A DNA stretch of 61,967 nt, counting the filler, from Dimargaris cristalligena (lineage: Eukaryota), in the NCBI GenBank assembly GCA_003614675.1. It is 15 parts of 15 records of this genome, joined end to end, with 100 filler letters (N's around TTAATTAATTAA, not from the genome) between each part and the next. Parts side by side here need not be neighbours in the genome. Positions count along the whole stretch, not along the records: positions 1 to 4,075 come from ML003833.1; 14 more parts are not named here. One strand, written 5' to 3'. Both the position numbers and the translations under genes were made by a program. Shown piece after piece: positions 1-40,400 of this stretch (the stretch's first letter is position 1; each line of letters opens with the position of its first letter). The notes beneath the pieces were generated by a model. It did not search any database, was not told where the DNA came from, and saw only the letters and a list, made by a program, of their open reading frames with translations.

Positions 1-165
1 GAAATCAAAGGGAAAATTTGTATGGAAAGAATGGGTTAAAGGGGAGGGAAAAAAAACTGGTTATACCAGAAAAAAAAGCAACTTCATACCCTGCATAATA
101 ATAATAATAGTAATATAATTAGTGTGGCTTATAGGGGGATAGTACACCTTGCCACACCGTCTAGT
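1..165. repeat. Unclassified interspersed repeat (family I); second copy at about 33745-33885
   Basis: aaatcaaagggaaaatttgtatggaa...cttcatacc...caccttgccacacc aligns colinearly with aaatcaaaggaaaaatttgtatggaa...cttcatacc...caccttgccatacc in contig 9. Confidence 0.75.
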
Positions 166-179
166 CCAAGAACATCTTT

Positions 180-644
180 ATGGTCTACTTTTATAATCCC
201 GTGTTGGGTGCATTTGGGCAGTGAATTTTGGCTATCTACAACACAATGGATAACCTACATAAAGTGCTGGCTATCTGCTTACAGATGGGAAAAGAACACG
301 ATGTGAGCGGACTTGCACTTGGTATTCTTGAAAACGCCAGCAAAACTCTTGCTAACGGACACATTGTTTGTAGCGAATCAAATATTTATAATGGTCAATG
401 TGATATTATCATAGAGATCCAACACGGCGGGAAGCCGATAATAATCATTGAGTGTAAAAGTAACAAAGCTTGTGGGGGGATTGAAAGAATACAATTAAGT
501 GGGTATATGCTCAATGGTAATTTTCCCCATGGCCTGTTGATGTATCCCGACTATACTCTCCACTTTTTTCTGGGCAATGAGGGGGTACCCATACCAATCA
601 ATACATATACCCATGTTAACAACTTGGATGCACTTGTATTGTAA
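180..644 (+). pseudogene. Disrupted PD-(D/E)xK restriction-endonuclease-like gene, paralog of 3421-3945
   Basis: Motifs E...CDIIIE...IIIECK...QLSGY...HGLLMYP; about 53 of 134 residues identical to the 3421-3945 protein by hand. ATG at 180 aligns without gaps to the paralog start, but there is an in-frame TGA at 222-224. The 3' end is cut by an LTR starting at 640. Confidence 0.75.
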
Positions 645-1021
645 CCAGATTAGGCCGAGAAGGACCGGAAATTAGTAGTGCGCCGAGTAGGGCAAGAACT
701 GAAGATAGATAATAAATGTATAAGTATTTATTTAGAAGACAAGGTGTAAATAGTCGGCCACTCTAGACAGTCTGTCTTATCCCTCCGAGATGAGGTGTTG
801 TTCTAGTGCTGTCGGGGTAGACGCACCCTCTTCCAACGGGTAGTCCATGTCCTCGTCTAGTGGTTCTCCCTCACTCGGGTGAGGGGTACTGTGGGGAGGA
901 TCGGCCTCCTGCCGGTGGGTGATGGTGGCCTCCCTCGGTTGCAGTATCTGCCATGTGGTATATGTAGGGTATTTGAAGTGCCATCTGGCATACCATGATT
1001 GATTATCAGCAATGGGTTACA
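640..1021. mobile_element. LTR-like element (family B, 382 bp) inserted in the 3' end of the nuclease-like gene
   Basis: Termini TGTAACC...GGTTACA form a 7-bp inverted repeat with TG...CA ends; internal AATAAA; homology to the paralog stops exactly at 640. No TSD found. Confidence 0.65.
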
Positions 1022-1036
1022 AATCCCGTCTATGAC

Positions 1037-1606
1037 TGTCACCCCTCCTAATCTGACCTAATCTGTCCGCTAATGATCACCGTCATAGCAGGCCTTATAG
1101 TGCCATATTGAACACCCTGGTCCTAACCGGGTGCCACATATTATATATATCACCTCACCAGCCGGACCCCTCGGAGTTCGCACTACTCACTCCTTAAGGT
1201 GATCCCAGTGTCTTCTGGTTCCCATGGAAGCCTCCGTCCATACGAGGACCATCTGGCCCTTCCGAACGTTACCTTCGTTATATAGTCTCCCCCTTTTGGG
1301 ACTTCCCCTTGAAGTAGTCCCCGGCGTATATATAACTGGGCCCCATTGGGACTGGTTAGTTCCCTTAGCTTATTCCTATCTTCAGTTTACCCTCAATAAA
1401 CTCTATATACGCTCACCGCCCTCGTACTGACTAGTAAGTGTGCATCGGTGCACGTCCCCCACATATACATTGACACTTGCTTTATTTAGTTAGTCCAAGC
1501 CATCCTAATGCTAGTAGCCCACTTGGCCATGCCCAACGCCCCGCCTACCGTTAGAAGCCTATCCCCAAGACTCTTGATGGATTAAGAGTGGTTAACCTGG
1601 GCGACA
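1037..1606 (+). mobile_element. Solo LTR, family A (Ty3/Gypsy-associated, 570 bp)
   Basis: Ends TGTCACCC...GGGCGACA; flanks ATGAC/GTGAC (5-bp TSD with one transition); TATA-like motif and AATAAA; many homologous copies in this window. Confidence 0.9.
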
Positions 1607-2954
1607 GTGACTCATCAGTCAGTTTTATGTGTAGCTTGCTTATCTGTTATTGCTACAATTAATAATAAGCAACTTTATAATCATTGCTTTACTGGAAACG
1701 AATCCATCAATCATAGCTTTTTATTTTAATCTTTTGGTATCTATACTGCGTAACAAATAGCGAATATATAGTGCTCGAATTTTCACATCAAAAAAATGCA
1801 AGAATCCTGAAAATGAACAGCCAACAGTCCTCTACTAATAAAAGGGAATTATATTGTCTTATACCATTATCCTTACAAAATAAAGATTTTCTATATTTCG
1901 CTAATATTTTCAAGCACTCTGGTGGGCATAGTCCCTTGTACCCCACAAATTGAACCAGCACCCATTTTGCGTAATGAACCACCTGAAACCAACCGATCAG
2001 TGTCCTTGAACATCCCTGAACCTGTTAGCCGGGGGCCCTCCATGGCGTAGAGGAATCCCAAAATGAAGGTCAAGACGGTTTCACAGCTTCCTAAACCTAG
2101 TGTCGACAATGTAGTACCCCCACACTACAATTACTCCATTGAATACCACTTTTCCACCGCCTATAGCTATTGAGGGATTTTATCACTGATGCTCAAATTT
2201 GCCAGTTATGTTTACTTAACCAATTCACTGATAAACATTTACTTTCGATGCCATTCGTTGTGACCACTCCACTTACACATAACCCCAGTTTCATATTGCC
2301 CATGGCAGATTCGACCGTTTGCCTGGAGTTCCAATAAGATAATCGTAGTGCAATGAATTGGAACGTGAGAGTTGGGAAGGGCCCTGAGTTCAAGCTAGTG
2401 GGGGCTGCGTATTGGAATACCCGAATTTTACAGGCATTAGGAGTATTTATGACGGTTACGGTACATGCCAATTGAATGATGTACGCACCTCTTTATCCCC
2501 TCTACTACAAGGAAAATAGTACAAGCTGGGCAGTCCCGTTGGTTAAAGAGAATTAACAAAGTTGAAAGCAGTCATCCCTTTTCACCCAGGCCTTCCTTCC
2601 CAACAGAATCACACCCAATCTCTGAGAAAGATAGCTACCGATAGTCACATGTTAATGCCTATTAGAATTTAGATTTAGATGGTCAAACAGTGCATTTATA
2701 ATACATCAACTAAATTACACTAAAAGGATGAAGTAATCACCCCTTTGTCCATCCAAGCAGCTCACGCATCACAATAGTTTTCTATTTGCTCTAAACCGTG
2801 TGACCAGTTTCTATTTAATTTAGAATTCGTTACTACCAATAGACGACAGCACCCACGGCCTACGCTAATACCAGAAGGCCCGCGCTTGTGGTCACCATCA
2901 CTGAGTCGGATTTTAGACTGCAGAATTTGCAATAATTATATAAGGCCACTAGAA

Positions 2955-3096
2955 TATGGGTAAAATTCAAACCAGCTGTATAAGGTTTTACAATATACGT
3001 GTATGGGCGAATATATGTGAGAATATCTTTTAACCAGTAATATTGGCCGCATCCAATGGATTTTTCATTATACAGCCTAAATGAACTTCTCCCATA
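2955..3096. mobile_element. MITE, about 142 bp (family F); other copies at 12661-12802, about 15446-15586 and 50366-50506
   Basis: Imperfect terminal inverted repeats TATGGG..TTCA..CTGTATAA / TTATACAG..TGAA..CCCATA; four dispersed copies of equal length in AT-rich sites; non-coding. Confidence 0.8.
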
Positions 3097-3420
3097 TCAG
3101 TAATGAATAATCCCCCAATGACCTTGGCTTGGTTTTAACTCAAAGGTGTCACTTGTCCTTTATTCTATGGGTGTGCTACTAGTTATTGCAATATGATTAG
3201 TGGTAGAGCGAGCTTTATTAAATAATAGTATAGTAAAATAACATGAAACCAAATGCTGCAAGGTGATAAAAAGTCCCAATCAAGGTGTATAATATTGTAG
3301 CGCGTCCCGAGAAATGGAGGGGCGGTCGTGGCTAATCGATGGTAAGTAAGCAAGAGCCTCGGAAGCTATTTGTAAACAATCAGCGAATACGATGATTCCC
3401 AGTACGACTCAGTTAGAGGG

Positions 3421-3945
3421 TTAGGAATTGGGAATAGTATGAAGATTATAAACGAATTCAATCCTCTGAATAAATGATACAAGTTCGTCCAGGTCATCTT
3501 CATGGGTATAAGTACAGGACTCTTGTAGAACTCCGTCATAATTCCAGCCGAAATAGATCGTGCACTCAGGGTACATTACGAATCCGTGGAGATAATTCCC
3601 GTCCCACATGTACGCAACCATTTGCGATCTAGCTATCAGCTTATTTCGCTCATTTTCTCCACGCCCCTTGCATTCGATAATAAGTCTCGGACGACGGCCA
3701 TATAGAACCTCTACAGAAATATCAACTCGACGACGTAAAATATAGTGTTCACGGCGAATAGTGTACCCGTTACTATGAGTTTTACCAGAAGCATCGAGGA
3801 TAGCCAAAGCAAGTTCACTCACGTCTTGTTTTTCCCCCGACTCCAAGGCGCGCGCCGCTAATCTGCGCAGCCCCTCCATAATGTTGCGCGAGGCCACTAA
3901 TTGGTGACCAGAAGTGCCCGACCCAGGATCGTTATAATCGTCCAT
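3421..3945 (-). CDS. Stand-alone PD-(D/E)xK restriction-endonuclease-like protein, 174 aa
   Basis: Intact intronless ORF. RRE...RVDISVE...LIIECK...SQMVAY...HGFVMYP matches the E / D / ExK / QxxxY layout of PD-(D/E)xK nucleases. A paralog lies on the same contig. Confidence 0.75.
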   Translation of the reverse strand: MDDYNDPGSGTSGHQLVASRNIMEGLRRLAARALESGEKQDVSELALAILDASGKTHSNGYTIRREHYILRRRVDISVEVLYGRRPRLIIECKGRGENERNKLIARSQMVAYMWDGNYLHGFVMYPECTIYFGWNYDGVLQESCTYTHEDDLDELVSFIQRIEFVYNLHTIPNS

Positions 3946-4175
3946 CGAAACAAAAACTTAGAACTCGAACATGTCGATGTTGAAACCGAAAGGGGGCGGA
4001 CAAATGTCGCAACGTACGATGGTAATGTAAAATAATATATAGAAGATAAGCGTTAGAAACGAAACAAAAAGAAGCNNNNNNNNNNNNNNNNNNNNNNNNN
4101 NNNNNNNNNNNNNNNNNNNTTAATTAATTAANNNNNNNNNNNNNNNNNNNNNNNNNNNNNNNNNNNNNNNNNNNN

Positions 4176-11319: not shown

Positions 11320-12421
11320 CTAATACTGGTAGAATCCACGACCTGATTTCTTACCCAGCCAACCGGCATCAACGTATTTGACCAGCAGAGGAGAGGGGCG
11401 GTACTTGGAATCTCCCAGTTCGTTGTGGAGAACGCGCATGATGGCCAAGCAGGTGTCCAGGCCGATGAAGTCAGCCAGAGTAAGGGGCCCCATGGGGTTA
11501 TTGGTCCCCAACTTCATGGTGGTGTCAATATCCTCACGGGTGGCAATCCCCTCCTGTAGACAAATGACGGCCTCGTTGATGTAAGGCATGAGTAGGCGAT
11601 TGGCAATGAAGCCCGGCGTGTCTTGGGAGGTGGTGCAAACCTTAGCCATGGCTTCTGCCAGCTGTTTGGTTTTGGCCAGGGTCTCGGAGGAAGTGGCGAG
11701 TCCGGGGATGATTTCCACCAGCTTCATGACGGGTACCGGGTTCATAAAATGCATGCCGATAACATTTTCCGGGTGGGCGGTAGCCGCCGCGATCTTGGTG
11801 ATGCTGATGCTTGAGGTATTGGTGGCCAGGATAGTATCCGGCCGGGTCAAGCTTGACAGTTGACTGAACAGCCGTAGTTTCAGGTCGGTGTTTTCGGTGG
11901 CCGCTTCAATGACCACCTCACAATCGCCGAGGGTACCCAAATCGTCGGATGAGCTAATCCGGCTCTTGATGGTTTGGGCGGACGTCTCGTCGAGTTTACC
12001 CTTACTAATATCCTTGGCGAGTAGCTTGTCTGAATTTTCGAAGTGGCAGTAAAAACAAAGATTAGAACTAAATTGGGATGTGGGACAGCAGTCTTCCAAG
12101 TCTGCAACAGACCAAGGCGACAGCAAGGTGTCGGGGCTAGACAGTTCGAATAAGTAAATGTATATATATAGTGTGCGTGGGTGAGGGGTAGAGTTAACGG
12201 AAAAGGGGTACCAGGTGACGACTTACCGATGAACTGGGAACTCTTGGTTAACTGGGCGGCATTCTGGTCGTAGAAGCGAACGGCCAACCCGGCGTTGCGG
12301 GCTGCCACAAGGCCGATGCCCGTGCCCATCTGTCCGGACCCCACAACGCCAACAGTACGAATGGGTTCGGCGGCCGACGAAAAAGCCACCCTGCTGTCGA
12401 AAATCGCCGCCCTTCAACGTC
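11320..12421 (-). CDS. 3-hydroxybutyryl-CoA / 3-hydroxyacyl-CoA dehydrogenase, 5'-partial; exons 12421-12227 and 12029-11320
   Basis: Rossmann motif VGVVGSGQMGTGI, EAATEN, NTSSISI, HFMNP, PGFIANRLL, PMGPL, G.LGKKSGRGFY. A GTAAGT...TCAG intron (12226-12030) joins the two ORFs in frame. Confidence 0.96.
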
Positions 12422-12521
12422 NNNNNNNNNNNNNNNNNNNNNNNNNNNNNNNNNNNNNNNNNNNNTTAATTAATTAANNNNNNNNNNNNNNNNNNNNNNN
12501 NNNNNNNNNNNNNNNNNNNNN

Positions 12522-12629
12522 CCCCCCCTAACACTAGTAGCCCACTTGGCCATGTCCAACGCCCCGCCTACTGTTAGAAGCCTATCCCCGAGACTCTTGA
12601 CGGACTAAGAGTGGTTAACTCGGGCAACA
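12522..12629 (+). mobile_element. 3' end of family A LTR
   Basis: Matches 1500-1606 and ends ...GGTTAACTCGGGCAACA. Confidence 0.85.
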
Positions 12630-12660
12630 ATAAATAAATACTCTTTTTATGAACAGTACA

Positions 12661-12802
12661 TATGGGAGAGGTTCAACCAAGCTGTATAACGAAAAATCCG
12701 TTGGATGAAATAAATATTACTGGTTAAAAATAAATCTCCCATATATTATCCCATACACGTTTCATTTAAAACCTTATACAGCTGGGCCGCATTTCACCCA
12801 TA
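12661..12802. mobile_element. MITE family F copy
   Basis: 142 bp, TATGGG...CCCATA ends; reverse-complement homolog of 2955-3096. Confidence 0.8.
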
Positions 12803-12858
12803 TAAATGTCGATATACTAGCTGGTTTATAAATCAAACGGGATATTTATTTTTATTAC

Positions 12859-16519: not shown

Positions 16520-16686
16520 TTCTTATATTTGTGTTGTGCAATAGCAGGAGAATAGTGAAAAGGAAAGTTTAAACAGTAATAAACGTNNNNNNNNNNNNNN
16601 NNNNNNNNNNNNNNNNNNNNNNNNNNNNNNTTAATTAATTAANNNNNNNNNNNNNNNNNNNNNNNNNNNNNNNNNNNNNNNNNNNN

Positions 16687-19600
16687 CAGGTGTTGCAGAT
16701 AGGCCGGTCGGTCAGCGTAGGAGAGAATGTCCCGCATACGTTGAAGTTGGGCAGCGAATAGATTCCAGCTCCAGAGGTACATGGACCCGTGTTTGAGGTC
16801 CATGACCCGAACGGCGATGTAGGGCCGTTCCGCAAGCGGCAGGCCGGAAAGGGAGTCGTCGTCATAGTCGAAATCGTCGCCCCCGCCCATTCCACCACCG
16901 GAACCACCATTGTCAGCATCGTCGTCTTGACCAGCTCCGCTCAGGGCACTCATACCCACGATGCCCCCAGTGGCCCCATCTCCGCCGAATGCGAAAGCGG
17001 GCAGGTCGTCCACGGGTGTATCCCAATAGGAGAAGGGCTTAGTGGGGACTACCAACCCGGAACATCCCTGCCGTCGCTGCCGGCCCGAGGTCAATGCATG
17101 GGTAGTAGAAAACGAGGTTCGGTCACGTCGGGACAATACCCCTCCTCCCCCACCCACCATGGGTGCGAGAATCCGGTCCACCACTGTAAACTGATAAATC
17201 ACCTGCTTGTTCAATTCCTGGGCAACCACATTGGCCTCTTTCAGCAGGATGGCATTCTGGAGCAGCTGGCGGGCCATCTTCACAAACCGAGAGGAGCGCC
17301 ACTTGGCCACCATAGGGGTAAGCAATAGGCGCTGGTCGGTGGTAAAGTCGGTGTGGGGCACAAATTCGAGGAATTTATCATGGGCGATGGTCAAACTCCG
17401 CACGCGCTGTTCGTACTGGTCCCGTTGGGCTTCCAGTTCACGCTGCATATGGGCCATGGCGTCACGATATTGGCTGGCGAGGGCCGGCGCGCCCTCTAAG
17501 GAGGAGGGTGGGGGAGCGCTCGGGTCGGCCGAATCCTGCCACATGCGTAGTTTTTCCTCGTAGTTAAGGGTGTTACCGTTACCGTCGTCCCCGAGTAAAC
17601 GGTGGATCATGGGGCTAGAGTCGCGACGGGGGTGGAGGGGGTCGTCGTCGGAGTTGGGGGAGTCCGGGTTAGGTAGGTACATACGGGAAGCCGGGCGGGA
17701 CCCTAGTTCGCTGAAGCCACGGGAAAGGGTATCCACTGCCGTCGTGCTCCCTAGCCCGGCCTCTCGCCAGGCGTAATTCCAATCCACCATTTCCGAAGTG
17801 AGCGAAAAGATGGTGTCGGCTGGGGAAGATGGCCGGCGTTCGGGAGGTTCAGAATCATCGCCGCTGCCGGCGCCTAGGCCCGCGCCTAACATACTACTAC
17901 CCATGTCACCGCCGTCGTCCCCTGACACAGGAACGCCGGCCTGACGGTCCCGTTCCCGGCGGGCCTCTTCGGGATGGTTAAAGCGAAAAACGTGATTATC
18001 GCCAATAATAATACGATAACCACTACGTAAACGTTTGGGTCCAGTTAAGCGCCGGCCATTGACCAATACGAGGGAGTTCTCTTGCGGAACGAGGGTCACT
18101 CTGCCTTCATCGTTATCGAAATGGCAATGGTAGTTCTTAATAACCTTTCCCGTGAGTTTAATCTCAACGGAGGGTGCGTCTGTGGGGGGGTTAATGGGTT
18201 CGAGGCGTCCTACGCGGGTCAAGCCAGGCTTTAGATTGTAAATCAAACACTCAGACATCAGTGGGTCTTCATTCAGGTTGACCAGGTGAGGCATCCGCTT
18301 GGGGGTACGCAATCCAACCTGGTCCTGATCCAATGAGATACCAAGGTCCTCCAGCACTTTTTCTCTCTCCTGCTGGACATCCTGCGTCTTGCGCAGTTTC
18401 TCCTCCCACGTCTGGTTGAGCTCGGTCATAAGTTTCTCCGAGGCTACGAGTTGTTCTTTGATGGCGTAGGCCGGACTGCTTAGTGATTGGGGGAAGGAGA
18501 CCCCCTCGGGTGCACTCTGCAGCATAACCTGTTTTTCCTCTTCGGAGATGACCGACCCGTCCGGGCGTACGCCGGCACTGATGGGATCGAAAACGGCCAA
18601 TTTGACTCGGAGCTGTGAGAGTTCGTCCTTCAATTCGCGGATCAGACGGGCGTTGGGATCTTCGTTCACCACCGCCTTGTTCATAATGCGCTTGGCCCGG
18701 TCGGCGTAGCGCAGTGTGCTTAAGGTTTCTTCGTAGTCGGCAGGCGATATAGCGGCAATCATGGCCGTACGGGAGTTGCCCCCTAAGGAATCCTTTAGAA
18801 GCCAGGTGAGGACCGAGTCCCGGTAGGGAACGAAGGCGTCTTTGGGTTTTTTGGACGATGGGCCTGCCGTGGCCTGGTCGGCCAACGCGGATATTACCTT
18901 TCCCAGCGTAGTCAAGGATTTATTGATGTTGGCACCTTCTTTCAGCCGGGTCCCCGTTGCTCCAGTGGAATTGGCCCGCTCACTCCCGGCCAAATCAACC
19001 AGACTGATGCGGGACACTTTTTCGGTGGACAGATTAGTCTCTTGGTCGTAACGAATCTGGGTGAGGATGATAGTGAACACGGCGTGGGAGCGACTTGATG
19101 TGGCGTTCATTTGGGTGGCTGCCACCGTTCGGGCCTTATTACCGGCGTCCATGAGGTCTTCGATATCCTTGTGGGACGATACCACAAGCTTCGATAGATC
19201 TTCGACGTAGGGGCCTAGCGAGGGGTGCTCACGCACTTTGAGATTGCCTTTGCCATTGGGGTTAAGTAGATCCCGCACTTTCTCGCAGTAGATTTCAATA
19301 TAGGACACCTCGACATTGAATTTCAGGTGTGGGTCCGAATTGGCATCAATGCGTTCGAATAGGGCGCCGCAGGTCAATGGGGTCAACCCACGATCTTCAC
19401 CATACCCCACCTATTTAATGGCAGTAAGAAATCGGCATATTAGAGACGAAACAAAGGTCAGGAATTAGATAGCCGAGAGGTAGAATGTTACGGGATATAG
19501 AGAGTTGGGTTCTGTAAAAGTAAGCCCAGTAATAGCTGGGAATTTACTATTAAAACCTACCATTGTGTACGATTTACCACTGCCGGTTTGGCCGTCTGTT

Positions 19601-25374: not shown

Positions 25375-26548
25375 TGTTGGACCATCTAATCTACCCTAAC
25401 CTAGCTGACTTAGTGTCTGATTATTTTAGGCCTTATAGTACCATATTAGCTTTCCCATAGTCAAACTCAGTACCATGGGATCACCATCTATTATGTAACC
25501 CACCCCTGGCTAAACTGCACCTTATTGCACTAATCACTTGAGTGCTAATCCAAAGACTCTTCCAGTTACCATCAGAGTCTTCTGGATACTAATAGACATC
25601 TGGTTGGCCTATTTACTTATCCATTAGTCTTAGTAGTATCCTTCCCTTAGGACCTCCCTCTGGAGTCATTCCTGTATATATATAACTGGACCCTATTAGG
25701 ACTTATTAATATCCTTAGCTAATTCTTTCCCCTCATTTATCCAATAAATATCTATATATACTTACCCCCTTATACTGACTATTAAGTATACTCTACTACA
25801 TACCCATTATATATATATTGTATCTAGCTGCTGGGCTATTTAATCCACCCTAATCCAGACACACTAGTATCTATCCCTATTAGACCTTTTAGTACCATAT
25901 TAAAATTCCCTTGGTCACCCCTGGTACTATAGTATTACCCTATATCATATAACTATTCCCCTTCCAGACTCCACCTTTTCACACTAATCACCCAGGTGCT
26001 GATCTGAAGACTCTTCTGGTTACCATCAGAGTCTTTCGGTTACTAGTAGCTATCTAGTTGGCTTATTCACCTATTTGCTAGCCTTAGTAGTATTCCTCCC
26101 TTGGGACCTCCTTCTGGAGTTATCTCCATATATATATAACCAAGCCCTATTGGGACTGGTTAGATTCTTTAGCTTATTCTTACCCCCCCAGGCTTACCCT
26201 AATAAACCCTATATATACTCATTGCCCTTGTATTAACTAGTAAGTGTGCTCACTACATTCCCTTGCCTGCACCTGTATTTGTAGCCTTTATTAGTTAGTA
26301 CCATACCCCTACCTAATGCTAGCAACCTGCTTGGCCAAGCCCAAGCCCTGTCTACCATCAGAAGCCTATCCTCGGGACTCTTGATAGACTAAGAGTGGTT
26401 AACCTAGGTGACACTAGCCTTTATTGTTTAGTACAGTGCCTTTGTACTTAATACTAGTAACCACTTAGCCAAACCTATGTGCACCCTACCATTGGAAGCC
26501 TATTACATGGGACTCTTGATGGGCTAAGAGTAGTTAACCTGTGTGATA
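25375..26548 (+). mobile_element. Tandem cluster of heavily mutated family A LTR copies (about 25375-25870, about 25880-26413, and a 3' piece at 26414-26548)
   Basis: Repeated ccatcagagtctt, tatataac, aataaa and gactcttga..ggctaagagtggttaacc blocks homologous to 1037-1606. Confidence 0.85.
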
Positions 26549-33281: not shown

Positions 33282-33609
33282 GTAGTTCCCCCTTCAGGAC
33301 CTCCCCTTGGGAGGCATCCTCAGCGTATATATAACCGGGCTCCCCTTTGGGACCGGTTAGCACCTTAGCTTATTCTTACCCCCATAGTTTACCTCAATAA
33401 ACTCTATATACGCTCACCCCCTAGTACTGACCAGTAAGTGTGCATCCAGTGCACGGACCTCGCCTATGTCCTATACTTGCTTTATTCGGTTAGCCTCATC
33501 ACCGCCCCTAACACTAGTAGCCTGCTTGGCCATGTCCAGCGCCCTGCCTACTGTTAGAAGCCTACCCCCGAGACTCTTGATGGACTAAGAGTGGTTAACT
33601 CGGGCGACA
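33282..33609 (+). mobile_element. 3' half of a family A LTR, little mutated
   Basis: Homologous to 1290-1606; ends CGGGCGACA. Confidence 0.9.
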
Positions 33610-33879
33610 GTAAATAATAAATTTACATAATAAAACCAATAATAAAAAGAATAGTAATAAAATCAATAAACTACTAATAATTAAGCATGAACATGCATAT
33701 TCAATTATAGGGATAGTATGCATCCACTAATAGAAATATAAATAAAATCAAAGGAAAAATTTGTATGGAAGAAATGGATTAATAGGGAAGGGAAAAAAAC
33801 TGGATACACTAGATAAAAAAACTGCTTCATACCTGTGACAATCAAGGGGACACTCCACCTTGCCATACCATGCCCCACA

Positions 33880-35188
33880 TCACTGTGCAAGCCATCATCC
33901 AGTTTCTCATAGAGGACATTATCAGCATATATAGATACCCCTGGATCCTCATCTCTAACCATGGCAAACAATTCACTGCAAGCCTCCTCCAACAAACTCT
34001 GTAACTCCTAGGGGTAGACCACCATATGGCTATTCCCTACCATCCCCAAAGCAATGGAGCTGTAGAGCATCTCAATGGGACCCTTAAGCATATGATCACC
34101 AAACATTCCTCAGGGGATAACCCCCAATGGGACCAACACCTCACCCTCTACCTATTTGCCTACTGCACCCCCCACATCTGTGTGATCACCAACAAACCAT
34201 TCTTCCTGATGTACAGGCACAATCCCTATATGCAAGTCAATATTGCCTTAAATGTAGAACCCAGCACCCTGCAAGCCTCTACTGGCTCTGCCTATGCTGA
34301 CAAACTACACAACCAGCTTCATAAGGCCTACCAACATGTCCACCACAAGCCAGGACCCAAGTCAACTAACCCCATACAATATTACCCCGGTGACCACATT
34401 CTTGTCTGAGTCCTGCACAGGCTGCTATCCCTACAGGCCCCCTTTGAGGGACCTGTCTCCATTGAAGGTATCTGTGGGGATAATACCTACACCATTACTC
34501 TGGTGGTACATGACAAATGCTGCCCACAGGAACAAGTCTCCGGCAACTAGATCATTCCATTTGTTGAAGGCCTCAAGGATGAGGCTCTAGTAGAAGAGGG
34601 TGATATTAGCCCTCCTAATCTAACCTAATCTAGTTAGATGATTGTCAGTTATATCAGGCCTTATAGTACTATATCAAACCCCCCCATGGTCACCTCTGGT
34701 ACTATGGGTCTATCAATAATCATATATAACTCCTCCTTTTGGTCTCCCTGGTGCTCACACTAATCACTCCACCATCAATCTGAGAATTCTTCTGGTTCCC
34801 ATGAGAGTCTTCCAGATACAAGGACCACCTGGCTGGCCTACTAATCAATACCTTAGATATATAGTACTTTCCCTTGGGGACCTCCCTTTGAAGTTGTCCC
34901 CCACATATATATAACTAGGCCTGATTGGGACCAGTTAGGATCCCCAGCTTATTCCTACCCCTTAGTTTACTCAATAAACCCTATATATACTCACCTGCCC
35001 CTTATACTGACCAATAAGTGTGCATTGCTGCATATCCCTTACATTATTAACCACACTTGCCTTTATTTGGTTAGTACCTGACCATACCTAATACTAGTAG
35101 CCCACTTGGCTGAGCCTGAGCCCCGCCTACTATTTGAAGCTTAACCTCAAGACTCTTGATAGACTAAGAGTGGTTAACTTGGGTAACA
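33880..35188 (+). mobile_element. Decayed Ty3/Gypsy 3' end: integrase core, PPT and family A 3' LTR (about 34604-35188)
   Basis: ILISNHGKQFT...PYHPQSNGAVEHLNGTLK...W...L...LFAY...PFFLMY is a mutated rve core. A purine tract AGTAGAAGAGGG lies just before the family A LTR. Confidence 0.88.
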
Positions 35189-35634
35189 GCACTATTGATA
35201 CAGTTAAGTAGGCTATACATATAGTTAGTCAGTATACTCATGCAAGCAATTAATATATGGATTAGTATGTATGATTTCACATATAAGGGATAACTTTTCC
35301 CCCTCTTTTTTTTCTGTATGTTAAATTTTAGTATCTATTATTTAGTATTATTTTTCTCTCATCTTTTTTATTTATATAATAAAGTTGCTTTTACTACCAC
35401 TTTAGTTACTTAGATTTTATATACCTTTGAAGTTATAGTTACCATAGAAATGGTCCTTTTGAGCTTCCAGACTAGTATTACATTTACTTTGATTTAAACT
35501 AGTGAGTTTTATTATAAAAGTATAATATTTTAAGGAATTTCATAGAGTAACTAACCAGTTCACCTGGAGAAGCTACCCTACCATTTTGATAATGTTTGAT
35601 TATTTATTTTAGTGGCTTAACACTACCACATTAT

Positions 35635-37480: not shown

Positions 37481-40400
37481 TCCTGGACAAAATTTCACCC
37501 CCAAAGCCCTGATTTCAAAGGAGAATTCAATTCAACAGGCCCATATCAACTTAGGCCACAATTATTATCCCTTCCTGATTTAGGCAGCCAAGTCTGGCCT
37601 ACTGCCAGGTGTTGATTTAACTACTTCCAAGGATATCCAACCTTATGAAACCTGTTTAATTAACAAGGCAACTCACCTACCCTTCTCTGGTAGGCTGGAC
37701 CCTGTGTTCTCTATACTGGAGGTAATTTACACTGACGTAGCTGGTCCTATGCCTGTCAGAACAATGAAAGGACAATACTACTTTGTCTCTTTTATTGACC
37801 AGTTTTCAAGAATGGCTTATGTCAGTTTTATTAAACACAAATCTGATGTACCCCAGGTACTGGACTGGTATCTAAAGTATGTGAATAATCAGTTTGGTAA
37901 ATTCCCCAAAGAAATCCATTCTGATAATGATGGTGAGTATATCTCCCATCAATTCACTACTATCCTCAAGGAGCATGGAATTACTCATTCCACTACTGTA
38001 CCTTATTCCCCTCAACAAAATGGCATTGCTGAAAGGTTCAATCGAACTATTCACTCTACTGTGAAATGTATGCTTAATGAAAAGGGTTTACCTAAATCCC
38101 TTTGGGGGGAAGCCCTTCTGGCCGCTACCATGATTTGGAATAGAATCCCTAGTCCTAAAATTGGTAATGACACTCCCCATTTATGCTGGTATGGCCAACA
38201 GCCAGATCTTACACTATTTCACCAGTTTGGGTCTGAGGCAATCATCAAAACCAACAATCCTCACTCTCAAAAGTTACAACCAACTTTAAGGAAGCTCCTC
38301 TACGTGGGGCTGACTGCTAACCTGAAAAACTATAAGTTTTTTGACCCCCAGTCAAACAAGGTCATTATCAGTCGTGATGCGCATTTTTTGCCCAATTCCC
38401 TGGCTTCCTGGACTCTAGAACAGCCATCCCCATCAAAAACCATCCAAAATCAAGCCCAGAATACTTCCAGTCGCTACTTTTACCTCCCTGATGAGGACCC
38501 AGGCTTAAATTTACCTATTCATGTATCCCATGCATCTCATGCACCTCCTGCAGCAGTGATTGTACCCACGACAATGGATATTTCTAACTAATCCAACTAT
38601 AGTTCTGAAATTTATCCAGTAGTATCCACTGTACCCCAGGTCACCAATACAGATGATCTTAGCATGGAATTAAGCCCACACACTTTAAGTGGCATCCCTG
38701 TAGACCCAAATCTTGATCCAAATGACTGGGAACTCAAATCTGAACTCAGGGAATCCAATATATCCCAACAGGTCCCTGTACCTATCCAATTCAACTACAG
38801 AACACCTATCCCCAGCCCCCCAGTTATTCCCTTAAAAAGGAATCATTCCAAAAGGTCAAAACAACTCCAATTGGCAACTCCTTGACTATCTAAGCATATT
38901 TGTGGTATTCCTCCCTCTCCCAACTCTAACCCTCCTTCAAATCTAGCTTTTCTGGCCATGGATGGTCCACAATCTTACTCCCTGGCTATGAAGGATCAGT
39001 TCCATAAGGAATGGCAGTTGGCCATTGACCTTGAACTCAAATCTATGGCTGAAAATGAAGTCTGGGACTTAGTACCTTGCCCAAAAACCTCCAAAGTTTT
39101 ACCCTATTATTGGGTTTTTGTTACCAAGTTGTACCCTGATGGTACTATTGAGTATCACAAGGCTCAATTAGTTGTGAAGGGATTCCATTAGTGTGAAGGA
39201 ATTGACTACAATGAAACCTTTGCACCTGTAGTTCATTACTCTAGCATCAGGATTCTCTTGGCACTTGTTGCTAAGTATCACCTTTTTATTCATCAAATGG
39301 ACATAAAAACTGCATTTTTGAATGGTAAAATTGATAAGGAAGTTTTTATTGAACCTCCTGAGGGATCCCAGATCCCCAAACACTCTGTCTACAAGCTTAA
39401 CCATAGCCTATATGGACTTAAGCAATCTCCAAGACTCTGGAATCAAACTCTTGACGAGTTTTTGCTATCCTGTGACTTTTTAAAGTGTGAACTTGATCAT
39501 GGTATTTATGCCAAGATTCAAGGAAACCTATATACATACCTTGCTGTGTATGATAATGACATTCTGATTATCTCATCTGAGCTTTCTGGCATGAATTGGG
39601 TCAAACAACAACTCAATACCAGATTCTCAATGACTGATTAAGGGGAATTGAATTTCCTGCTTAAAATTCAAGTCTCCCAAATCAAGTCAACTAATGGCCA
39701 GCTATCATCCCTTTTTATCCACCTACAGAAATACATTTCTGACTTACTGGAGGACTATAGTATGGAATAGTGTAACTCTACAAGCACTCCCATGGAGCCT
39801 GGTTTCAAACCCTCACCTGCCACCGCCACTTGTGAGCTCACCAATGAACCTTACACCAATTTAATTGGGCCCCTGTTGTATTTATCAAATTGCACTAGAC
39901 CTGATATTACCTATGCTGTTCACAAGTTAAGTTCCTTTAATTCTAAACCCACAACTACCCACTGGCTTACTGCCAAAAGAATTCTACACTACCTTAAAGG
40001 TACCCTAGACTATGGAATTACCTTTGATGGTAAAAATTCAGGTTTAATTAGTTTTTGTGATAGCAATTTTGCCAATGATTCCTTTGATAGAAAATCCATT
40101 GGTGGCCATTTATTTCTACTGGCTGGTGGCCCTGTATCCTGGGCATCCAAGAAATAAACCCTAGTCACTACTTCTACTGCTGAAGCTGAGTAGATTGCTC
40201 TATCTGAAGCTACAAAGGAGGCAATTTAGATTAAACAGATCCTCCAATTTCTTGATTCTTTTTCTACATCTATTACTATTTACAGTGATAATATGGCATG
40301 TATCCTTATTGCAAAGAACCCTGTGAATTACAGTTACTCTAAGTATATTGATATTAAATTCCATATGGTTTGAGACTATATTGATGAAGGAATTATTGCC

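Follow-up and report, generated by a model that had tools for sequence, protein, structure and literature searches.

Two small free-standing proteins with the PD-(D/E)xK nuclease fold in the fungus Dimargaris cristalligena

The described proteins closest in fold to those reported here are the nuclease heads of bacterial restriction enzymes. In BpuSI the endonuclease domain comprises residues 6-174, with catalytic residues E21, D60, E76, and K78 in a PD-x15-ExK arrangement, and the paper on this enzyme describes the D60A and E76A variants as inactive (PMC3185434). For the HsdR subunit of EcoR124I, a QxxxY motif after motif III (Q179 and Y183) is discussed as a feature of the RecB family (PMC2475608), and a superfamily survey published in 2012 classes the HSDR_N cluster as prokaryotic (PMC3424549). 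We analyzed a stretch of 61,967 nucleotides, filler included, from the fungus Dimargaris cristalligena (assembly GCA_003614675.1), referred to here as the window. It joins 15 parts of 15 records end to end, with 100 filler letters between parts, and parts side by side need not be neighbors in the genome. Near its left end, in the part taken from ML003833.1 (positions 1 to 4,075), are two small open reading frames (ORFs), copy A and copy B, each of which encodes a free-standing protein with the PD-(D/E)xK fold.

The explanation we favor, with a probability of about 0.7, is that copies A and B are real single-copy nuclear genes and anciently diverged paralogs within a small family of 130-175-amino-acid (aa) proteins, and that each protein amounts to a PD-(D/E)xK nuclease domain standing alone, one of the HsdR / type IIG-IIL / RecB-like kind. 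What emerges is a well-founded assignment of a few "hypothetical proteins" to a fold and a family, and not a new system.

Among known proteins, BpuSI and DrdV are the best structural matches and cover nearly the whole fungal protein, including its two N-terminal helices. BpuSI also agrees in its D-x15-ExK spacing and in having an N-terminal helix with an acidic residue (PMC3185434). In BpuSI and DrdV, however, the domain heads a protein of ~870-1016 residues that also carries methyltransferase and target-recognition domains, whereas in the fungal proteins, which are eukaryotic, the nuclease domain is the whole protein and no methylase was seen nearby. Identity over these structural alignments is 12-13%. 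The likeness to HsdR lies in the order of motifs, D...ExK and then QxxxY on the next helix (PMC2475608), in structural matches (Z 10.6 and 8.3 for 3h1t and 2w00), and in weak matches of family members to the HSDR_N and HSDR_N_2 profiles, none of which attains the gathering score. Unlike type I systems, the 132- and 174-aa fungal proteins have no helicase motor, and neither HsdM nor HsdS was found among the window ORFs scanned. The fungal family also has an invariant Cys inside ExK. Bacterial free-standing HSDR_N and HSDR_N_2 proteins (~170-185 aa) are alike in size and in consisting of a stand-alone domain, but they form bacterial clusters, whereas the only named members of the present family are eukaryotic.

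Cas4 nucleases, which carry a conserved four-cysteine (iron-sulfur) cluster, provide the best match of the family profile to a solved structure. When built from alignment A1, the profile matched the RecB-like Cas4 nuclease SSO0001 (4ic1) at E 0.0037, and from alignment A2 at E 0.017; D, ExK, and QxxxY fell on equivalent motifs. The fungal family differs from Cas4 in that it has no conserved four-cysteine cluster, only C92 being invariant, and the Foldseek match to its structure is weak (TMq 0.25).

The gene pair and its conserved motifs

The two genes are arranged tail to tail, with 2.8 kb between them. Copy A (P0002; 246-644, plus strand) runs from an ATG at 246 to a stop at 642-644 and encodes 132 aa, and copy B (P0001; 3421-3945, minus strand) is an open frame of 174 codons encoding 174 aa. 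BLASTP aligned the two proteins with 54/134 identities (40%), 82/134 positives, and a single gap of three residues (E 6e-34), which bears out the original prediction, made from the DNA alone, of two convergent ORFs that are paralogs at ~40% identity. When both proteins were searched against the whole window by tblastn, the copy A and copy B loci were the only matches, and everything else was at E >3.

The original prediction placed copy A at 180-644, which needs correction, as that frame is closed by an in-frame TGA at 222-224 and the open gene is 246-644. Positions 180-245 on the plus strand are a remnant of an N-terminal extension that resembles copy B residues 4-22 in tblastn. Because the similarity (189-638 against copy B residues 4-156) continues upstream through the TGA, copy A has apparently lost an extension that copy B retains. 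The ATG at 246 corresponds to M23 of copy B (ATG at 3879-3877) and, in the family alignment, to the start position of most relatives, so the 132-aa product is a normal family member. Of the proposed minimal, free-standing form of ~170 aa, the free-standing character stands, and the length does not apply to copy A. At the other end of copy A, the +1 frame runs 11 codons past the stop (636-675) with a faint likeness to the last helix of the relatives. A one-base frame shift near position 640 that would restore a longer last helix was considered and rejected, as the similarity was too weak by eye; a one-base slip or sequencing error near the end of copy A is possible.

Conservation of the catalytic residues was assessed in a 16-sequence family alignment, using copy B numbering and counting only rows that cover each position. 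E91, C92, K93, Q108, and G121 are invariant (16/16), D75 is present in 15/15, and Y112 is present in 14/16, with Cys in the remaining two. On the first core helix, 13/14 have a Glu. The family spacing is D-x15-ExK, followed by QxxxY after 11 to 14 residues. In copy A this block lies at 402-506 on the plus strand as D-x15-ExK-x11-QxxxY (D53, 402-404; E69-C70-K71, 450-458; Q83, 492-494; Y87, 504-506), with residue numbers verified against codons. In copy B it lies at 3610-3723 on the minus strand as D-x15-ExK-x14-QxxxY (D75, 3723-3721; E91-C92-K93, 3675-3667; Q108, 3624-3622; Y112, 3612-3610), with coordinates computed from the ORF start. Loss of D, E, or K among homologs, which the original prediction had named as a refuting outcome, was not seen in the rows covering these positions. 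The longer motif list given there (DI, IIECK, Q..(.)YM, GN(Y/F)xHGxxMYP, and TYTHxxLDxLV) is recovered in the alignment of copies A and B, but TYTH is not conserved beyond the window copies.

The cysteine between the catalytic E and K (within 450-458 in copy A and 3667-3675 in copy B) is found in 16/16 members. We found no mention of a Cys within ExK for HsdR.

Predicted fold and family relationships

An AlphaFold model of copy B built from the 16-row alignment has a mean predicted local distance difference test score (pLDDT) of 89.2 and a predicted template modeling score (pTM) of 0.83. Its elements follow the order alpha-alpha-beta-beta-beta-alpha-beta-beta-beta-alpha, and the core alpha-beta-beta-beta-alpha-beta fold is present, formed by helix 39-52, strands 61-69, 72-80, and 85-92, helix 99-116, and strand 120-124. 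D and ExK fall on strands 2 and 3 of this core. Specifically, the second strand is predicted to carry D75, the third to carry E91 and to end at K93, and helix 99-116 to carry Q108 and Y112.

The model was compared with 48,161 chains in a structural search independent of Foldseek, in which models without a true match typically reach Z 7-8. The leading matches were BpuSI (3s1s; Z 12.3, root-mean-square deviation [rmsd] 3.5, 142 residues aligned, BpuSI chain residues 6-170), DrdV (7lo5; Z 12.0, rmsd 3.7, 142 aligned), the HsdR fragment of V. vulnificus (3h1t; Z 10.6, rmsd 2.9, 119 aligned), and TT1808 (Z 9.6, rmsd 3.0, 114 aligned). Nearly all other rows listed are also PD-(D/E)xK folds. For this predicted structure, Z 12 stands clear of the range of 7-8 seen for unmatched models. 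In Foldseek searches against the PDB the first 12 rows are all restriction-endonuclease folds. A viral structure library gave nothing at E <=0.001; the best-covering row there is a phage protein named "Type I restriction enzyme R protein, N-terminal domain" (TMq 0.60). A homodimer prediction scored 0.00, which speaks neither for nor against dimerization. Together with the conserved motifs and the structural matches, the model upholds the predicted PD-(D/E)xK layout of the HsdR/RecB-like QxxxY type, and examination with AlphaFold and Foldseek for some other predicted fold returned PD-(D/E)xK.

Crinkler-type effectors have an N-terminal header or trafficking domain before the nuclease domain. 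There is no room for such a header in the fungal proteins, because the BpuSI nuclease domain alone covers residues 21-167 of the 174 in copy B and most relatives start at the equivalent of M23. Spok meiotic-drive proteins are large and multi-domain, with nuclease and kinase, unlike the single-domain fungal proteins of 132 and 174 aa.

Relatives were identified by phmmer among 1.84 billion cluster representatives. There were 13 matches at E <=0.001, 11 of them genuine relatives, all small (66-163 aa) and alignable over their full length, and a profile search added four more members. The other two phmmer matches, P0003 (937 aa, nine stretches) and P0014 (1433 aa, four stretches), were dropped as repeat-driven. 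Named members come from Coemansia sp. RSA 2049 and Coemansia sp. RSA 1200, where they are annotated as hypothetical proteins, and from Conidiobolus coronatus NRRL 28638. In three fungal genomes the relatives are annotated as stand-alone genes of 141-142 aa, and identity to the closer relatives is 33-45%. The family is small, with few members, and little studied, and its only named members come from early-diverging fungi. A literature search turned up no paper on this fungal family. To call it "undescribed", as was done originally, was nevertheless too strong, given that the Conidiobolus relative has an automatic UniRef name beginning "Type I restric" and that bacterial free-standing HSDR_N clusters are large.

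In a maximum-likelihood tree of 14 members the Conidiobolus-type clade is well supported and the Coemansia pair is recovered, and copies A and B are not resolved as sisters. The distance between them (40% identity) is similar to their distance from relatives elsewhere (up to 45%). As the tree does not resolve the copies as sisters, either the duplication is old or the family is fast-evolving.

Wider searches returned few further leads. When P0001 was run against 5.8 billion proteins in a word-indexed search, it gave 334 candidates, none at E <=0.001, and no longer, fused relative was seen among 7998 candidates from a family-profile search, which is a weak test. Close relatives were not found in metagenome contigs scanned with P0001 and with P0017, nor did single-protein scans of prokaryote genome contigs, viral contigs, and phage records reveal any; the sole match in plasmid records (E 0.2) was regarded as chance. 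In a language-model search the nearest named clusters were bacterial free-standing HSDR_N proteins of 172-185 aa with scores of 0.87-0.88. We treat this likeness as a lead only because the scores are under the 0.9 mark, and phmmer gave no sequence-level link to these bacterial proteins below E 1e-3.

Profile collections place the family near HsdR and related domains at low scores. When 12 members were scanned singly at E up to 1, HSDR_N_2 and HSDR_N were each matched by 8/12, PDDEXK_9 by 6/12, and PDDEXK_3 by 5/12. For these two HSDR models, the best scores among relatives were 24.1 bits (P0009, cut-off 25) and 22.8 bits (P0008, cut-off 25.1), so that no member passes either. For PDDEXK_9 (PF08011), the gathering score of 25.5 is passed by 2/12 relatives (P0005, 27.6 bits; P0008, 30.2 bits) but by neither window protein (P0002, 14.4 bits; P0001, no match), and the match spans only the first ~60-75 of 105 profile positions. 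Copy A has weak sub-threshold matches to HSDR_N_2, PDDEXK_9, PDDEXK_3, and HSDR_N, with scores of 16.3 and 13.1 bits for the two HSDR models (HSDR_N, PF04313; HSDR_N_2, PF13588). NCBIfam and PHROGs gave weak generic matches only.

Proposed catalysis, constraint, and possible decay

Based on the conserved layout, we suggest that the proteins act as metal-dependent nucleases. In the proposed mechanism, the first core helix would contribute an acidic residue, strands 2 and 3 the D-x15-ExK motif, and the next helix QxxxY. The carboxylates would bind a divalent metal (Mg or Mn), and the Lys would activate or position water for phosphodiester hydrolysis. Q and Y may steady either the DNA or the residues of the active site, a role discussed for EcoR124I. 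As the proteins lack any module for recognition, a motor, or a methylase, they would cut in a sequence-non-specific, structure-specific, or partner-directed way.

A number of findings count against the explanation we favor. Both window proteins fall short of every Pfam gathering score; the top match of copy A scores 16.3 bits where 25 is required, and copy B has no Pfam match even at E 10. The accepted model draws on an alignment only 16 sequences deep, the single-sequence AlphaFold model was poor (pLDDT 47) and was discarded, and Foldseek against the PDB found nothing at E <=0.001 (best 1.6e-3). Non-catalytic eukaryotic folds also match, namely mitoribosomal proteins (Z 9.0 and 8.3) and the RAP module of FASTKD4 (Z 6.5). 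Copy B alone among 14 sequences lacks Glu at the conserved first-helix site, with E38-K39 (3828-3833) where the others have x-E; its metal site may be altered, because the Glu sits one residue early. The position from which it is displaced may be the equivalent of the metal-binding E21 of BpuSI. The last helix seen in the relatives extends ~10 residues beyond the point where copy A ends.

Variation at copy A adds to these points. A second form of the gene is present in two of four DNA runs and differs at 43/434 positions over 202-635, with no gaps. This divergence is no lower than that of nearby intergenic DNA, in which two pieces differ between the haplotypes at 37/584 positions (with two gaps) and at 14/174. 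Among the copy A differences that were listed (11 of 43), five are synonymous and six are protein-changing, and constraint on this gene may be weak. None of these 11 falls at D, E, K, Q, or Y. Because only 11 of the 43 differences are visible, we take the variation in copy A as weak evidence of modest constraint.

These data raise the alternative that the fold has been kept without cutting, for nucleic-acid binding or as a scaffold, or that one or both window copies are decaying. The mitoribosomal and FASTKD4 matches and the missing first-helix Glu of copy B fit this idea, as do the stop in the former N-terminal extension of copy A, the short C-terminus of that copy, and a haplotype divergence close to the intergenic rate. 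However, D, E, K, and Q are invariant in all members that cover them, both window copies included, a pattern that would be surprising had catalysis been lost. In addition, the second haplotype of copy A has no insertions or deletions over 202-635, whereas the neighboring intergenic pieces have them, and the motif residues are untouched by the 11 listed differences. We consider loss of cutting or decay unlikely, although for these two particular copies a non-catalytic role or partial decay is a serious alternative.

Genomic setting and possible roles

Both genes lie within ~11 kb of the window that is gene-poor and repeat-rich. An interspersed repeat between them at 1306-1707 has seven further matches in the window (75-90% identity) and a read depth 10-100x that of its flanks in four DNA runs, and a second at 2914-3181 has four further window matches and the highest depth of the stretch in the same four runs. 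The description of the region as rich in transposable elements (TEs) is supported by these repeats. Copies A and B themselves have the depth of unique flanking DNA in the four runs, which come from two studies, and neither is repeated in the window at the DNA or protein level. Because the genes are no deeper than unique DNA beside them while the repeats are very deep, the genes are single-copy and not transposon cargo.

The repeats that flank both genes and a copia-type integrase ORF at 37749-38591 could suggest that the pair derives from a TE endonuclease or a transposase fragment, and a bacterial contaminant could also be envisaged. Against this, the genes have the depth of unique DNA and are unamplified in the window, neither matches a transposase or reverse-transcriptase family, and relatives are stand-alone 141-142-aa genes in three fungal genomes. 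The window also carries ARPC4, a kinesin-like ORF, and an intron-split 3-hydroxyacyl-CoA dehydrogenase gene, and its DNA is eukaryotic and nuclear. A transposase-fragment or contaminant origin, which the original prediction had named as a refuting outcome, is largely refuted, and we regard it as very improbable.

The two haplotypes extend beyond copy A. The repeat-bearing segment 636-1614 is absent from the second form, and reads from other runs join across it; therefore, at least one insertion between the genes is polymorphic. The second haplotype differs by ~6-10% over copy A and the spacer (202-2518). In the copy B region (3070-3857), only 1/580 positions differ in the run from the second study, and a haplotype boundary seems to lie between ~2518 and ~3070.

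Some features of the pair would fit a weapon in genetic conflict, possibly acquired from prokaryotes, that might serve as a toxin, an effector, a killer or selfish element, or a defense against viruses or transposons. The closest folds are the nuclease heads of bacterial restriction enzymes, and the HSDR_N cluster is labeled "Prokaryota" in the 2012 survey (PMC3424549). The family is patchy and fast-evolving, with window copies that are 40% identical, are not resolved as sisters, and stand about as far from each other as from relatives (up to 45%). The genes sit in the gene-poor, repeat-rich 11 kb, and copy A occurs on two haplotypes ~10% apart. However, the proteins have no signal peptide or header domain, and the whole chain is nuclease domain. 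The genes are unamplified, at single-copy depth, and no candidate immunity or partner gene was seen in the window. PADLOC defense models matched no family member below E 3e-4, and the matches at that level are to generic PD-(D/E)xK modules. As for transfer, the collections searched yielded no close relative from prokaryotes, phages, plasmids, or viruses. We judge a role as a weapon improbable.

We consider a nuclease that acts in the organism's own DNA or RNA transactions more likely than a weapon. A more elaborate version of the conflict idea, which we consider doubtful, would have these fungal nuclease heads derive from a prokaryotic HsdR / type IIG-like domain and serve as a genome-conflict weapon (a killer or allorecognition toxin, or a barrier to transposons, viruses, or foreign DNA), with a partner encoded elsewhere and the ExK Cys as a regulatory switch. 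If active, the proteins would be eukaryotic cases of a nuclease head otherwise known as a module of bacterial restriction enzymes. A 130-aa enzyme without a targeting module raises the questions of what directs and restrains a nuclease in the eukaryotic nucleus, and whether the family arose by ancient transfer.

In addition to the genes named above, the window carries a major facilitator superfamily (MFS) transporter, a 2OG-Fe(II) oxygenase, and a fasciclin protein. As originally predicted, no methylase is visible: none was found among the nine ORFs of >=150 aa scanned with Pfam, a set that did not include copy B or the 837-aa kinesin-like ORF (16639-19152, minus strand). Likewise, the window ORFs that were scanned yielded neither a specificity subunit nor a helicase, and no other candidate for a partner or immunity gene. 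The integrase ORF at 37749-38591 encodes 280 aa with rve and SH3_retrovirus domains and is a remnant or copy of a copia-type retrotransposon. Runs of N at ~12420-12470 and ~16639-16685 are assembly gaps, of which one interrupts the 3-hydroxyacyl-CoA dehydrogenase gene in its 5' part and the other cuts the end of the kinesin-like ORF.

The window also contains a short interspersed repeat family of ~150-300 bp, whose window copies share 70-90% identity. Read depth is likewise very high at positions 100-233 in each of the four DNA runs, and other copies of the family occur, for example, at 12527-12629, 12660-12803, 26131-26413, 33317-33611, and 34885-35189.

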